Shown here: in pieces, positions 36,226-48,956 of the stretch | Layout: every line of letters begins with the position of its first letter | Position numbering within the stretch: the stretch's first letter is position 1 | DNA from: a bacterium | GTDB lineage: Bacteria; Patescibacteriota; Minisyncoccia; Minisyncoccales; CG1-02-41-26 | Direction of reading: 5' to 3' | NCBI GenBank assembly: GCA_030648255.1 | Contig: JAUSHZ010000007.1 | Location: forward strand, 24,404 to 88,403 | DNA: 64,000 nt | Notes under the pieces: model-generated | Told to the model about the DNA's origin: nothing | What the model saw: the letters and a program-made list of their open reading frames with translations, nothing else | The model's database searches: none | Translations under genes and position numbers: made by a program

Positions 36226-36552
36226 TTAAACTCCCAAATCCCTTTTCTTCTCCTCAAATTCTTTTTTATCTATTTCACCTTTCGCGTATCGTTCTTTCAA
36301 AATCTCAAGCGGAGATTTTTCATGCGCGCCATCGCTATGGTTGTGTCCGCACATATGACCCTTTCCAGAACCTCCTCTTATTAAAGCTATAATCCCCCAA
36401 ATTATGAGGCCCCAAAAAACCAGCATAAAAATCCAACCGAATCCGCCAAAAGGCGTAAATCCAAAATTCATCATACCTTGCGCAAGGGAGAAAGTCGGCA
36501 AAACAAAACTTAAAATAAAAATAAAAGTTGTGATAAAAAATATTTTTTTCAT
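36226..36552 (-). CDS. SHOCT-domain membrane protein
   Basis: Signal/TM region followed by the C-terminal LEILKERYAKGEIDKKEFEEKKRDL. Confidence 0.55.
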   Translation of the reverse strand: MKKIFFITTFIFILSFVLPTFSLAQGMMNFGFTPFGGFGWIFMLVFWGLIIWGIIALIRGGSGKGHMCGHNHSDGAHEKSPLEILKERYAKGEIDKKEFEEKKRDLGV

Positions 36553-36562
36553 AAATTTATTG

Positions 36563-36955
36563 TTATCTAAACCACTCCTTTAAACTTTTTGGAATTTCCA
36601 ACAGATATAAAAGCGCCAACGGCGCGCCGATATTGGCAAATCGTTCTACAAAGTCCCAAATGGGTTCTCCGGCTATTGGCCGAATAAGCGCGGTGGCAAA
36701 TGCCCAAAACGTCATCCAGAGCAAAGCTATTCTAACTGGTTTTATCAGAATTAAAATGGCAAGGGCTATATCTAAAGCGCCGATAAGCGGTAAAAGAGTA
36801 ACGGCGGTATCCGCCGAAATGCCCACCGAAGTAAAATAAGGAATCCAGCCTTGCTTTGCTTGCAAGCCAAATACGCCATGGCCGATAAACTCGCCAGCCA
36901 CGGCTACCCGCAGAATCCATTCAATTTTTTTAGAGTTTTCCATATTTTTATTCAA
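36563..36955 (-). CDS. DoxX-like small membrane protein
   Basis: 130 aa with 3-4 TM helices. Confidence 0.4.
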   Translation of the reverse strand: MNKNMENSKKIEWILRVAVAGEFIGHGVFGLQAKQGWIPYFTSVGISADTAVTLLPLIGALDIALAILILIKPVRIALLWMTFWAFATALIRPIAGEPIWDFVERFANIGAPLALLYLLEIPKSLKEWFR

Positions 36956-37282
36956 TTAACCGAAAACTAAAACTTTATCCGAGTCCTCGACCATTTTTAG
37001 CAAGTCGGGCATCGTGGAAACAGGACACACCTTGCTTTCCTCTTTGCCACGAACTTTTAGACAAGTTCCGCAAGCATAAATTTCACCTTTTGACTCTTTA
37101 AACTCCGCCACTTTCATGGATATGTCAAAATTCTCGCTGTCTGGAATAATATCAAGTTCTGACCCCTCGTTCATTAAAAAAATTTTCACTTGATGGCTTG
37201 CTTTTAAAGCGGTAATTCCAAAACGAAATGTATTCCACACATGTTCAGGTTTATTTGATTGCAAGATAATACCGAGTTTCAT
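36956..37282 (-). CDS. DsrE/DsrF-like family protein
   Basis: 108 aa. The architecture MKLGIILQSNKPE...CGTC is DsrE-like. Confidence 0.45.
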   Translation of the reverse strand: MKLGIILQSNKPEHVWNTFRFGITALKASHQVKIFLMNEGSELDIIPDSENFDISMKVAEFKESKGEIYACGTCLKVRGKEESKVCPVSTMPDLLKMVEDSDKVLVFG

Positions 37283-37863
37283 AATTTAATATGTTGTTTT
37301 GATTCTTTTATAATTTTAACCGAAAAATATAAAACCAATCCAGCCATTCCCATTCCAACGATTATATCAGGCCACATAGAGTTGAAGTAGCCAACCAAAA
37401 TTCCAGCTCCAATAACGCTGATGTTTCCATACACATCATTTCTGGAGCAAATCCAGGCAGACTTCATATTTATGTTTTTATCTCTATATCTTGTTAGAAG
37501 GAAAAAACATACGACATTGGCTACAAGGGCCAAAATACCAATCAGCGTAATAGTTTGCGCCGATGGAACTACTGGATAAAACACTCTATAAAATGATTGC
37601 CAAAGAACATACAAACCTACTGTAAGCATTATAACACCTTTTATTAGAGACGCCCTCGCTTGGGTTTTATGGTTTTTAGATAAAACAAATAAACTAAGCC
37701 CGTACACAAACGCGTCCCCAAACATATCCAAAGAATCAGCGATCAATACATTAGAGTGAGCCACTATTCCGCTTGCCAATTCAGTAAAGAACATCCCGGC
37801 GTTGATAAAAAAAGCTACATAAAGCACCCACTTTATCCTCGGCTCTATATTACAGCAATCCAT
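37279..37863 (-). CDS. Cation diffusion facilitator family transporter, TMD only
   Basis: LIADSLDMFGDAFVYGLSL is a CDF signature. 194 aa with no cytoplasmic C-terminal domain. Confidence 0.6.
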   Translation of the reverse strand: MDCCNIEPRIKWVLYVAFFINAGMFFTELASGIVAHSNVLIADSLDMFGDAFVYGLSLFVLSKNHKTQARASLIKGVIMLTVGLYVLWQSFYRVFYPVVPSAQTITLIGILALVANVVCFFLLTRYRDKNINMKSAWICSRNDVYGNISVIGAGILVGYFNSMWPDIIVGMGMAGLVLYFSVKIIKESKQHIKL

Positions 37864-37867
37864 AATT

Positions 37868-47045: not shown

Positions 47046-47088
47046 ATGTTTTTAGCTTTAATAACATTATTACAACCAAAAACAAATT

Positions 47089-47622
47089 TTATTCCACACC
47101 ACAACTTCCTCCCGCTTGGCCGCCACCCCCAGAACAGCCACAGCTTGGCTGTGGTTTAGTTTCTTTAGGTAAAGAACAAATATGGCTAGTTGAGCAGCCA
47201 CAGCCACATTGATACAGCGGAGAAATAATTGGAATATTATTTACTTGGACATATTCCATTATTTTTTGGTGAAAAGGGGTTAAGAAAACCGCCAAGCTCA
47301 CCATGGCTATAGATATTAAAATAATCGTTAGGCCCAGCAATAAGGGCTTTTTATAAAAAGCAGGAAATTTTTTAGATAAAACCCAGGCCAGCACCACAAA
47401 TAAAGCGACTGCTAAAATTATGGCTATTAAAAAAGGAGAGTAGCCCTTTACCTTTAAAGCAAATCCAATAAAGCTGGTGCCAAAAACCGCAAAAACCATA
47501 GCAACGATTGCCAGAAAAAGCAAAGCAATCGCCTGAAAAACAAACAGTGCTTTGGGCTTCATTTTAACTTTGCCCGCTTTTATTTTCTCTATTACTTTTT
47601 GGGAAATATTATTTGTTTGCAT
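47089..47622 (-). CDS. Membrane protein with Cys-rich C-terminus; possible anti-sigma factor
   Basis: Overlaps the 3' end of the ECF sigma gene. TM helices are followed by CGCGCSTSHIC...CGCSGGGGQAGGSCG. Confidence 0.4.
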   Translation of the reverse strand: MQTNNISQKVIEKIKAGKVKMKPKALFVFQAIALLFLAIVAMVFAVFGTSFIGFALKVKGYSPFLIAIILAVALFVVLAWVLSKKFPAFYKKPLLLGLTIILISIAMVSLAVFLTPFHQKIMEYVQVNNIPIISPLYQCGCGCSTSHICSLPKETKPQPSCGCSGGGGQAGGSCGVE

Positions 47623-48205
47623 ATATTTTTCCGCCAGAGGCGGATCCGCCTTTGGCGGAGGCGATTTCTTTTATGGCTTCTTTGGCTCTTTTAATTCGAA
47701 CGCCAACCGTGGCTATGGGAATTTTTAACACCTCGGCTATTTCTTGATAAGACAGTTCCTGAAAATAATAAAGTAAAATAACTTCTTTTTGCTTAAAATT
47801 AAGCTCGTTAATAAATTCTTCTATTTTTGGAGGAAATAATTTTTTTTCTGCTTCATTTTCAATATCTTCTTTGTCAATATTATAGCGGGGTAAAAAAACA
47901 TCAAAATCAAATAAAGGCAAGGGCTTTTTCTTTTTTAAATAATTTACAGTTTCATTGTGGGCAATTCTATAAACCCAAGGAGAGAATCTTTGTTTGGTAT
48001 CAAATCCTTTAATATTTTCAAACGCTTTTAAAAAAACATTTTGGGTAATGTCGTTTGGCTCATCTGGACCCTGCACCATTCTTCTAACATATTTTTTTAT
48101 CTTATCTTGATATTTCTCAATCAAAAAACCAAAGGCCTCCACATTGCCCTGCTGAGTCAACAGCGCCAATTGCTCGTCTGTTTTTCCCAAAAACTCCTCC
48201 ATCAT
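47609..48205 (-). CDS. ECF (sigma-70 family) RNA polymerase sigma factor
   Basis: Region 2 FLKAFENIKGFDTKQRFSPWVYRIAHN. Region 4 HTH ELSYQEIAEVLKIPIATVGVRIKRA. Start taken at MMEEF. Confidence 0.8.
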   Translation of the reverse strand: MMEEFLGKTDEQLALLTQQGNVEAFGFLIEKYQDKIKKYVRRMVQGPDEPNDITQNVFLKAFENIKGFDTKQRFSPWVYRIAHNETVNYLKKKKPLPLFDFDVFLPRYNIDKEDIENEAEKKLFPPKIEEFINELNFKQKEVILLYYFQELSYQEIAEVLKIPIATVGVRIKRAKEAIKEIASAKGGSASGGKIYANK

Positions 48206-48215
48206 ATTATTACAA

Positions 48216-48956
48216 TTAAACACCCTTTTTATTACTAACCCACAACATCTCAAACACCTGCTTTTGCATCTGGCTAAATTCCGCATTTTCAATAACCACG
48301 GCCAAAAACTCTTTTTGCTTGCCCGATACCATTATAACTTTTTCATTATAAATAAACATTGTAGCTGAAAAAGAAAATTCTTTTGGTAAAAACCTAATTT
48401 CTCTCAAGCCCTTTTTCCCTTCGCTGACTCTTGCTTGAACTGATGGTGTCTCAAAGTCCAGCCAACGCAAAAAAACGCCTTGCTTTATTCGTTTTTGTGT
48501 CCAGCTTTCTTCGTATTGCTCGTCAATATGTTTTTTAAAATTTTCATAAGAAGCAATCCCGAGTAATTCTTTTGGCTTTTCTTTTAAGATGTTTCCATAA
48601 ACTGCTAAATAGCCTTCTTGCCCCTCAAAAAATCTCACTTTGGGCTTGTTGCCTGTTATGTTGTAAATCGATTTTAACTCTGGCAAGGACTCTTTAAACA
48701 TTTGAGCTCGCCTGTCTGCTATTTGCCCCAAAATTTCCGGGCTTTCAGCCACTAAGAATGTTTTAGCTCCTTTTTTAATTTGGCTAATAATGCCCTTTTC
48801 TTTTAAGCCATCGATGGCCGTATAAACAGTGGTGCGCCTAACCCCCGACTTTTTGCCCAATTCTTGCACTGTGGCCTGACCTAATTCCAAGGCCGCTAAA
48901 TAAACCTTTGTTTCATTGTCGCTCAAACCTAATTGTTTTAATGTTTCTATTGACAT
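48216..48956 (-). CDS. TrmB-family transcriptional regulator
   Basis: N-terminal wHTH ETKVYLAALELGQATVQELGKKSGVRRTTVYTAIDGLKEKGII. Confidence 0.65.
   Translation of the reverse strand: MSIETLKQLGLSDNETKVYLAALELGQATVQELGKKSGVRRTTVYTAIDGLKEKGIISQIKKGAKTFLVAESPEILGQIADRRAQMFKESLPELKSIYNITGNKPKVRFFEGQEGYLAVYGNILKEKPKELLGIASYENFKKHIDEQYEESWTQKRIKQGVFLRWLDFETPSVQARVSEGKKGLREIRFLPKEFSFSATMFIYNEKVIMVSGKQKEFLAVVIENAEFSQMQKQVFEMLWVSNKKGV

Follow-up and report, generated by a model that had tools for sequence, protein, structure and literature searches.

We analysed a 64-kb stretch of a Patescibacteria contig (hereafter the window; G+C content about 37%, with proteins matching metagenome-assembled genomes of Patescibacteria) and focused on the genes from 48956 to 36226, every one of which is carried by the minus strand. 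This locus is a real and large copper and thiol-stress defence operon in tiny-genome Patescibacteria, and its core is common across the phylum. We read it as an expanded form of the Patescibacteria copper-homeostasis locus with an unusual regulator, and we assign a probability of roughly 0.6 to this explanation as a whole, with mechanism and regulation included. Its new elements are a sigma/membrane-sensor cassette that occupies the place of the repressor CsoR and a CupA domain that is wired to a CcdA-like channel. What the data show directly are the identities of the domains, the conservation of their ligands, the predicted topology, the statistics of gene order and the positions of the motifs. 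A preliminary description of the window had listed these genes as a copper and redox island under an extracytoplasmic function (ECF) sigma factor. Its gene list, strand and coordinates agree with our results (all genes are on the minus strand), and its domain labels, which we tested by Pfam, NCBIfam and PDB searches, were backed in nearly every case. The Pfam search of the fusion proteins that it had proposed was performed and returned HMA, DsbD_2 and DsbA domains. The copper and thiol-redox character of the module is borne out by the P1B-1 signatures of CopA, several HMA domains, a CupA-type cupredoxin and the DsbA and DsbD_2 domains.

The copper reading is also backed by the order of genes in relatives. 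We compared the neighbourhood of the core gene, which encodes a 516-aa HMA-DsbD_2-CupA protein, in 82 related loci (referred to by L numbers below), 72 of which reach at least 2.5 kb downstream and 74 of which have upstream sequence. A copA gene lies no more than 6 kb downstream of the core gene in 70 of the 82 loci, and in 48 of the 74 CsoR is encoded directly upstream of it. These counts point to a standard Patescibacteria operon with the order csoR, HMA-DsbD_2-CupA, copA. The CsoR meta-regulon of gut Clostridiales includes HMA+DsbD_2(+DUF2318) and DUF2318 proteins (PMC4938975), so that the same HMA-DsbD_2 family and DUF2318 proteins are found in CsoR regulons and here, although the C-terminal part of the core protein here is a CupA-type cupredoxin with a Cys tail and not DUF2318. 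Compared to the csoR-copZ-copA operons of Firmicutes and Actinobacteria, the locus is alike in its P1B-1 CopA and HMA domains and differs in having an ECF sigma/membrane-protein pair in the place of CsoR, none of which was found in the 64-kb window. The pair, consisting of the sigma factor and a 177-aa membrane protein, precedes the core gene only in the window/L002/L006 clade and in L060, and is divergent in L009. In this clade, the usual copper repressor CsoR is replaced by an ECF sigma factor and an undescribed Cys-tail membrane protein.

The core protein consists of a cytoplasmic HMA domain (CASC), seven transmembrane (TM) helices, an external CupA-type cupredoxin and a disordered tail, PSGAKGCGCGGGGGSSCGGK. 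With a cytoplasmic HMA domain followed by seven TM helices, the cupredoxin and the tail are predicted to lie outside the cell. The DsbD_2 part is a CcdA-like core of six TM helices (PF13386, E = 3.9e-33), in which Cys145 and Pro270-Cys271, one Cys for each half of three helices, are invariant. In the AlphaFold2 (AF2) model (pLDDT 72.6, tail disordered) the helices are kinked at the two conserved Cys. A phmmer search of PDB matched the fused cupredoxin to CupA (2MRY/4F2E, E = 9e-7) with the ligands aligned, and CupA 4F2E was the top Foldseek match of the 516-aa model as well (TM-score 0.88, rmsd 1.6 Å, 30% identity). The cupredoxin ligands Cys423 and Cys461-x-Met463-x-Met465, the HMA CxxC and the two membrane Cys are invariant in 43 diverse homologs. 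As judged from alignment and predicted fold, the fused cupredoxin is a CupA-type Cu(I) domain. It has the same fold and the same Cys...Cys-x-Met-x-Met Cu(I) ligands as Streptococcus pneumoniae CupA and the N-terminal cupredoxin of CopA (4F2E, 4F2F). However, streptococcal CupA is small, has one membrane anchor and acts on the cytoplasmic face, whereas the domain in the window follows seven TM helices, is predicted to be outside, and is fused to an HMA domain, a CcdA-like channel and a Cys/Gly tail. CupA-type cupredoxins have been described as restricted to a few streptococci (PMC5646241). We detected more than 5,400 homologs of the HMA-DsbD_2-CupA protein, mostly annotated as "sulfite exporter TauE/SafE", and at least 510 loci with this architecture in a species-representative genome collection. 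The second fusion, HMA-DsbA, is also common, with 59 of its 120 best matches carrying HMA. The HMA fusions can thus no longer be called unusual in this lineage, as they had been at first.

Two proteins of the locus, the core protein and the 177-aa membrane protein, end in Cys/Gly tails, ...GAKGCGCGGGGGSSCGGK and ...PSCGCSGGGGQAGGSCGVE, exactly as previously described, and CGC occurs in no other gene product of the 64-kb window. Rather than an oddity, the tail is a conserved feature of the family: it is present in 113 of the 120 best homologs of the core protein, 94 of them with the CxC type and 19 with an actinobacterial type that ends in CC. Four longer homologs (P0026, P0074, P0094, P0119) lack the Cys tail and have in its place, at the C-terminus, a second cupredoxin-like segment that again carries C-G-M-x-M. 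The tail DNA had been considered strikingly G/C-rich; the richness is there (G+C 61% and 48%), but it is explained by Gly and Cys codons, and we therefore rejected it as a sign of foreign origin. A C-terminal sorting signal was rejected as well, since the Cys motif is followed by neither a TM helix nor a basic cluster. Literature searches (DsbD_2 and copper, COG2836, CupA with cupredoxin and CcdA) found no functional study of the HMA fusions or of the tail.

The sigma factor was confirmed as a member of the ECF group (TIGR02937, 104 bits compared to a cut-off of 42.9); the best named model is SigW, which scores below its own cut-off. The gene of the Cys-rich membrane protein overlaps the sigma gene by 14 nt, as had been reported. 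This protein of 177 aa has a short helix at its N-terminus, crosses the membrane with three TM helices and extends into a disordered extracytoplasmic tail. The seven Cys of the tail (CGCGC...C...CGC...C) are all conserved in 18 close homologs. Its AF2 model is of low confidence (pLDDT 60), with the tail only as disorder. In a profile search, 839 cluster representatives shared the N-terminus and the three-TM core. Most of these have a different C-terminal domain of about 100 aa, none with a Pfam match, and every member whose context is visible lies directly downstream of an ECF sigma gene. The 177-aa protein has the layout of the anti-sigma class, namely a sigma-coupled downstream gene, a membrane protein and a variable external domain. 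We infer that the family is laid out as an anti-sigma family with interchangeable external sensors, although its cytoplasmic part is unusually short.

The possibility that the 177-aa protein is a copper-binding membrane protein that is merely co-transcribed with the sigma factor, which would then be controlled otherwise, is unlikely in our estimate. It does draw on the lack of a recognisable anti-sigma domain, on the very short cytoplasmic N-terminus and on the low confidence of the structural model. The strict adjacency and translational coupling to ECF sigma genes wherever context is seen, across a family of 839 cluster representatives, argue for an anti-sigma role instead, as does the usual anti-sigma layout of the family, in which the N-terminus and the TM core are conserved and the external C-terminal domains vary. 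A class I/ZAS anti-sigma domain (about 80 aa; HxxxCxxC) is not what the protein contains, as there is no His/Cys motif in its N-terminal part. In the CnrYXH (Ni/Co) and SigF-NrsF systems, a short membrane anti-sigma factor frees the ECF sigma factor by metal- or Cys-dependent sensing in the periplasm. We detected no sequence similarity to either, and the 177-aa protein differs from them in its three TM helices and disordered CxC tail and in having no separate sensor protein. The Myxococcus xanthus factor CorE (2023 review, PMC10141476) is likewise an ECF sigma factor for copper homeostasis with a Cys-rich sensing element. CorE, however, carries its own Cys-rich C-terminal extension and CxC and has no anti-sigma factor, while here the Cys-rich part is on a separate, external membrane protein. 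CorE-like regulation was rejected, as the sigma factor in the window has zero Cys residues. A gene for a 207-aa protein of the Peptidase_M50 (site-2 protease) family is located at 30519-31142 (-), between the locus and the S12 gene, and L004 has it at the same place. In other bacteria, members of this protease family cut anti-sigma factors of the membrane.

In order to locate possible ECF promoters, we searched the 64-kb window for the motif GGAATAAAA-N11-TTGTAATAAT, which can be read as GGAAT-N16-TGTAAT, allowing up to three mismatches. Only two matches were found, compared to 0.13 expected by chance; these are the sites P1, at the sigma gene, and P2, at the core gene (Table 1). Such a motif had been anticipated upstream of 47622 and 42970. 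It was not found at these two positions with up to three mismatches, and P1 and P2 are where it lies instead. A sigma-70 consensus scan flags neither of them. In 1.44 Mb of related loci, with up to two mismatches, the motif was found only in sigma-bearing loci (L002 and L006), and there only ahead of the sigma gene and the first effector gene; the spacer sequences differ in these relatives and the -35 and -10 boxes are kept. The more distant sigma loci L087 and L089 have GAAAC or GAAAT, N16-17 and TGTAAT. Taken together, five genomes have G(G/T)AAT or GAAAC-N16-17-TGTAAT ahead of the sigma gene and the first target, and recognition by the sigma factor is putative. SigW-type promoters have the form GAAAC-N16-CGTA, to which GGAAT-N16-TGTAAT is close. 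The motif positions support autoregulation of the sigma factor and control of the operon, as far as sequence motifs can indicate it. A degenerate form of the motif gave at least 120 matches in a metagenome collection; 4 of the 80 loci examined had a match to a protein of the locus, and in none was it placed immediately 5' of a sigma or cop gene. The motif is too short and AT-rich for that collection.

As for the signal, the sigma/177-aa pair might be a general sensor of envelope thiol oxidation (by O2, peroxide or disulfide), which would make the locus an oxidative-stress regulon of an anaerobe with copper as a secondary matter. Relatives of the pair that have the Cys tail are found beside a rubrerythrin gene and genes of Cys-rich exported or membrane proteins and not beside cop genes. 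In L087 (distant Patescibacteria), at 5442-6843, the pair is followed by the same promoter-like motif and the gene of a Cys-packed exported protein of 96 aa (PPVCPCQ...CECT...CNCNGGGCACQSGC), and then by a terminator-like hairpin and a rubrerythrin gene; in L089, it adjoins the gene of a membrane protein with CAVC. The operon in the window is moreover rich in DsbA, Grx (glutaredoxin) and DsbD_2 proteins, and contains DoxX and sulfurtransferase-type proteins, which in mycobacteria are linked to thiol stress. On the other hand, the cassette stands exactly at the place that CsoR has in relatives, ahead of the core and CopA of the CsoR type, and the hairpin in L087 parts the rubrerythrin gene from the sigma-controlled gene. 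Since copper and thiol oxidation are mechanistically linked, the two readings also overlap. We consider a general thiol sensor unlikely.

The explanation that we prefer, a copper-homeostasis operon with its own surface thiol chemistry, would work as follows. Cu(I) would be expelled by CopA and captured by the external CupA domain and tail of the 516-aa protein. The DsbD_2 channel would pass reducing equivalents, or Cu(I) itself, across the membrane, and in this way it may maintain the thiols of the CupA domain and tail in a reduced, metal-competent state, along with the thiols of the accessory proteins (DsbA-like, Grx-DUF2318 and CuA). The effect would be less copper-catalysed disulfide damage at the cell surface, as with Scs in Salmonella. 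The SufS, DsrE, DoxX, CDF and SHOCT proteins may contribute on the cytoplasmic side to sulfur trafficking, the repair of Fe-S centres and the efflux of soft metals. The 177-aa protein would hold the ECF sigma factor at the membrane with an external Cys tail that resembles the tail of the effector itself; copper binding to this tail, or its oxidation, would free the sigma factor, which would in turn drive transcription of its own gene and of the 14-gene operon from the two GGAAT-N16-TGTAAT promoters. The parts of this scheme that we infer are the function of the 177-aa protein as an anti-sigma factor, the nature of the signal, the direction in which electrons or copper flow, and the co-transcription of all 14 genes. 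CupA reduces Cu(II) through its two Cys, and the reductant that resets CupA is unknown (PMC5646241); this, together with the CcdA-like conduit that is fused to a CupA domain here, shaped the proposed mechanism.

The scheme can be compared to the Salmonella ScsABCD system, which illustrates that copper stress calls for dedicated thiol reductases of the envelope, with DsbD-like, DsbA-like and anchored thioredoxin-like parts (PMC10907172). In that system, the copper-induced parts are the DsbD-like ScsB, the DsbA-fold, Cu(I)-binding ScsC and the anchored thioredoxin-like ScsD, and analogous parts are present here. The DsbD_2 protein of the window, however, lacks the periplasmic domains of ScsB, the partners carry cytoplasmic HMA domains, and the regulator and the phylum are different, with apparently no outer membrane. 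The combination that defines Scs (ScsB domains, ScsC, ScsD and ScsA in one operon) is not found here; the parts are analogous only, and system-level homology is not established.

Several points weigh against the copper-operon explanation. First, no experiment on members of the two key families was found, and only one paper that we found places the HMA-DsbD_2 family in a copper context. Second, the first TM Cys of the DsbD_2 core is without the Pro-flanked CcdA signature, which makes metal transport as compatible with the data as electron transfer. Third, the cytoplasmic N-terminus of the 177-aa protein has about 24 residues, and Pfam and NCBIfam searches found no known anti-sigma domain in it. 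Fourth, the -10-like TGTAAT also resembles a housekeeping -10 element, so that the sigma specificity is only putative. Fifth, the Cys-tail relatives beside non-copper genes in L087 and L089 mean that the signal may be general thiol oxidation and not copper. Finally, intergenic gaps are no longer than 54 nt from 47045 to 36226, and nothing shows that the SufS-to-SHOCT genes are co-transcribed with the upstream genes. We did not find a convincing terminator after the SHOCT gene (fold z = -1.2); the first good hairpin and T-run past the operon end was found after the HicB-like gene, at 35873-35858.

CopA itself deserves a correction. Its translation shows the P1B-1 signatures CPC (ACPCALG), YN (FYN) and MALSS. 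Separate copZ and copA genes had been listed, and the open reading frames are indeed at these places, but they are probably not distinct genes. The tract that parts them in the window is A10, whereas the independent Logan assembly L001, with no other difference over 4,988 bp, has A9 and so encodes a single CopA of 983 aa with two HMA domains. L002, a relative with 80% identity, has G+A8 at the tract and likewise a single reading frame of 967 aa with two HMA domains. Judging from these tract lengths, copZ probably corresponds to the first HMA domain of CopA, detached by a difference of one base in the homopolymer (A10 compared to A9). In either phase of the tract, a stop codon follows close behind in the alternative frame. 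The E. coli copA gene yields a short product besides full-length CopA by frameshifting. The A10 tract could be an assembly error, or a slippage site that gives a CopZ-like protein and full-length CopA. Two CopA subtypes are found among the related loci. Identity to the CopA of the window is 91% in L002, 50% in L004, at most 58% over partial matches in L006, and 70-72% in distant loci; the core 516-aa protein shows the opposite pattern among near and distant relatives. The accessory genes did not significantly track the CopA subtype (Fisher p = 0.12).

The accessory genes are variable among the relatives. In the 82 loci, HMA-DsbA is found downstream of the core in 10, Grx-DUF2318 in 8, CuA in 4, the 75-aa protein in 3 and a low-molecular-weight (LMW) phosphatase in 3, while SHOCT genes are found up- or downstream of the core in 7 and DsrE in 4 (L010, L041, L058 and L066). 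The window has the richest accessory set among the loci analysed. In the PDB search, the DsbA domain of HMA-DsbA matched actinobacterial DsbA, BdbD and ScsC (4GXZ, E = 1e-11), and the DsbA-like protein with CYEC matched S. aureus DsbA 3BCI with its active site aligned; no match was found for the Grx-DUF2318 protein or the CDF transporter. The Grx-DUF2318 protein had been called thioredoxin-like, which we refine to a Grx-like domain followed by DUF2318. DUF2318 has been described as periplasmic, with two CXXC motifs, and as acting together with thioredoxins in Campylobacter jejuni FetA (PMC10783030). FetA has DUF2318 on the outer face, with the membrane-anchored thioredoxin-fold partners FetE and FetF in a proposed redox relay, and in this respect it resembles the Grx-DUF2318 protein; its context is iron uptake (FetMP), whereas here the Grx-like domain and DUF2318 are fused in one protein within a copper operon. 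In L002, at 13029-13709, the Grx-like domain (CEWC) is fused directly to CuA in one protein of 226 aa that has no DUF2318, and an LMW phosphatase/ArsC-like gene stands in the place of DUF2318. Among the remaining genes, the cysteine desulfurase scores 435.7 bits with TIGR01979, slightly under the cut-off of 475, and a CDF copy with 68% identity lies beside the core gene in L066. The MDCC of the truncated CDF protein and the GCCC of the 75-aa protein are vicinal-cysteine motifs suited to soft metals.

The free cupredoxin of 142 aa kept its label and was refined to a complete CuA domain: it has the full ligand set H...C-x3-C-x3-H-x2-M, aligned to subunit II of the Thermus ba3 oxidase (E = 4e-11), and the motif is kept in L020, L028, L041 and L066. 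The adjoining gene of the 75-aa protein has the same position beside the CuA gene in L002, L020 and L045. Factors such as CcdA, TlpA, ScoI and PCuAC serve the assembly and reduction of CuA in cytochrome oxidase, and CopA paralogs are known for detoxification and for assembly. The module might accordingly be mainly a kit for building and running an extracytoplasmic CuA protein of electron transfer, and not a detoxification system. In such a kit, CopA would supply Cu(I), the CupA-like domain would be the chaperone, and the channel, Grx and DsbA proteins would reduce the CuA Cys. The complete ligand set, the direct Grx-CuA fusion in L002, the CuA gene with the core in the four loci just named and the two CopA subtypes, reminiscent of the paralogs for detoxification and assembly, would fit such a kit. 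Yet a CuA gene lies within 6 kb downstream of the core in only 4 of the 82 loci, while the core and CopA are nearly universal and usually behind CsoR, a repressor released by excess Cu(I). The 64-kb window contains no haem-copper oxidase subunit I, no NosZ catalytic domain and no other partner, and the neighbouring [FeFe]-hydrogenase genes point to a fermenter. A CuA kit is thus quite unlikely, and we keep to copper defence as the function of the operon.

Table 1 Features of the copper and thiol-stress locus. Positions are those of the 64-kb window. Column Evidence denotes the basis of the assignment.
Feature	Position	Strand	Evidence
TrmB-family helix-turn-helix (HTH) regulator	48216..48956	-	Pfam TrmB; own sigma-70-like promoter 48994-48965, TTGCCA-18-TATAAT
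P1, putative ECF promoter, GTAAT-N16-TGTAAT	48206..48235	-	Directly 5' of sigma gene, overlaps trmB 3' end
ECF (group IV) sigma factor, 198 aa	47609..48205	-	Pfam Sigma70_r2 and Sigma70_r4_2
177-aa membrane protein, putative anti-sigma/sensor	47089..47622	-	No Pfam/NCBIfam match; AF2 model
P2, putative ECF promoter, GGAAT-N16-TGTAAT	47066..47095	-	43-nt gap before HMA-DsbD_2-CupA gene; -35 overlaps stop codon of 177-aa protein
HMA-DsbD_2-CupA core protein, 516 aa	45495..47045	-	Pfam, PDB sequence search, AF2 and Foldseek
HMA (CNAC)-one TM-external DsbA (CPFC)	44508..45440 (or 45482)	-	Pfam, NCBIfam
TM anchor-Grx-like (CEWC)-FtrD-like/DUF2318 (CQVC...CNNC)	43671..44504	-	PF10080 E = 5e-30; TIGR02196 weak
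Membrane-anchored CuA-type cupredoxin, 142 aa	43216..43644	-	PDB match; NCBIfam CoxB and NosZ C-terminal
75-aa two-TM protein, GCCC motif and conserved His	42984..43211	-	Weak cytochrome b561-like Pfam match below cut-off
97-aa 'CopZ', probably part of CopA	42677-42970	-	Parted from copA reading frame listed 40018-42765 by A10 tract 42687-42696
CopA, P1B-1 Cu(I)-exporting ATPase	40018..42970	-	TIGR01511 621.6 bits (cut-off 397), HMA domain
SufS/CsdA-like class V aminotransferase cysteine desulfurase	38797..40005	-	PF00266 E = 7.5e-113
Two-TM protein with external DsbA-like domain (CYEC), extra Cys pairs	37868..38800	-	Pfam Thioredoxin_4, DSBA
CDF transporter, membrane domain only, N-terminal MDCC	37279..37863	-	PF01545 E = 3e-23, whole 194 aa
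DsrE/TusD-like small sulfur-carrier protein	36956..37282	-	PF02635 39.8 bits (cut-off 22.7)
DoxX-like membrane protein, weak assignment	36563..36955	-	DoxX_3 22.5 bits, under cut-off 25
Membrane-anchored SHOCT protein, His/Cys-rich linker	36226..36552	-	PF09851 39.3 bits

The preliminary description had also proposed that the locus may be horizontally acquired, which our comparisons did not bear out. The G+C content of the locus is 0.36-0.40, as in the rest of the window, the tetranucleotide correlation is 0.96-0.98 across the whole window with the locus included, and its codon bias (B = 0.125) lies among the values of 38 equal-sized blocks elsewhere (0.104-0.163). Among relatives, the core is found at the same site, between the bacA/tRNA-binding genes and the S12-S7-EF-G genes, in L002, L004 and L006. 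The genes on either side include no integrase or transposase, a tRNA gene is no nearer than 4.5 kb, and no flanking repeats were noted, though no dedicated repeat search was made. The same site in three relatives and the lack of an integrase indicate that the core is resident at this site. The view that all 12.7 kb form a foreign genomic island of recent acquisition can point to a G+C content at third codon positions (GC3) of 0.353 in the genes of the locus compared to 0.316 elsewhere (3.8 points higher, p = 0.006), to accessory genes that differ among the four nearest genomes, to a CopA subtype that differs from that of the near relatives L004 and L006, and to toxin-antitoxin and restriction-modification genes in the CopA-to-S12 interval. 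With composition and codon bias within the range of the window and the core in place in L002, L004 and L006, we regard it as very improbable, and the truly deviant patch, a restriction-modification cassette of 29-30% G+C at 32.4-35.1 kb, is outside the locus. As accessory genes and CopA subtype differ among L002, L004 and L006, we describe the content downstream of the core as mosaic on the basis of these alignments, and wholesale foreign acquisition as not supported. Exchange within the phylum would leave no compositional trace.

The stretch at 32441-35141 is the sole compositionally deviant one (GC3 0.24). It encodes a DNA methylase (33463-34305) and a DUF6996/DUF6997 protein (34302-35141), probably as a restriction-modification cassette, and is followed by genes for LexA (35166-35831) and a HicB-like antitoxin (35958-36155). 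At the other end of the locus, the limits of the interval needed a change: the genes of the locus stand, but trmB is probably a neighbour in a separate DUF3800/small RNA (sRNA)/TrmB cassette and not part of the copper system. In L002, a TrmB copy with 95% identity is located 3 kb away, adjoining a PemK toxin gene, and the sigma gene there lies directly behind a methyltransferase gene. Among three genomes (the window; L002, 4541-5299; L006, from 8113 onward), TrmB is 95-96% identical at differing positions, while the neighbouring proteins are only 70-90% identical, which suggests that the cassette has moved recently. A DUF3800-V RNA (Rfam RF02964, 41.9 bits) is encoded at 48983-49080 (+), in the interval from the DUF3800 gene to trmB and antisense to both genes, with a perfect TTGACA-16-TATAAT upstream (48950-48977) and a hairpin and T-run downstream (49088-49103). 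The region 48950-49103 (+) looks like a stand-alone sRNA gene, and the same arrangement is found in L006 (67 bits). Farther beyond the locus, at 52142-54922 (+), are genes for a NuoF-like flavoprotein and an [FeFe]-hydrogenase, which are kept in L002 and L004. They identify the organism as a fermenter that depends on Fe-S enzymes, and the toxicity of Cu(I) would be particularly high for it.

A more far-reaching form of our explanation, which we hold only as a speculation and consider doubtful as a whole, is that the 177-aa protein founds an undescribed anti-sigma class with a cytoplasmic hook, three TM helices and an external CxC...C tail that senses copper or thiol oxidation. The sensor tail would mimic the effector tail and report whether the HMA-CcdA-CupA machine keeps the tails reduced and copper-free, and the machine itself would be a self-recharging extracellular copper chaperone, in which the CcdA-like channel and a swinging Cys arm would supply electrons of the kind whose source is still sought for streptococcal CupA.

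A tiny genome here spends about 12 kb on copper and surface-thiol protection. This outlay suggests that copper-driven thiol damage is a major hazard for surface-attached, Fe-S-dependent fermenters. CupA-type cupredoxins are widespread as domains fused to a CcdA-like channel, which provides a candidate for the reductant of CupA. In addition, a copper operon has swapped the cytoplasmic one-component regulator CsoR for an outside-sensing ECF sigma/membrane-protein pair from an uncharacterised family of about 840 clusters. If this is true, it would represent a new type of anti-sigma factor and a second route that links ECF sigma factors to copper.

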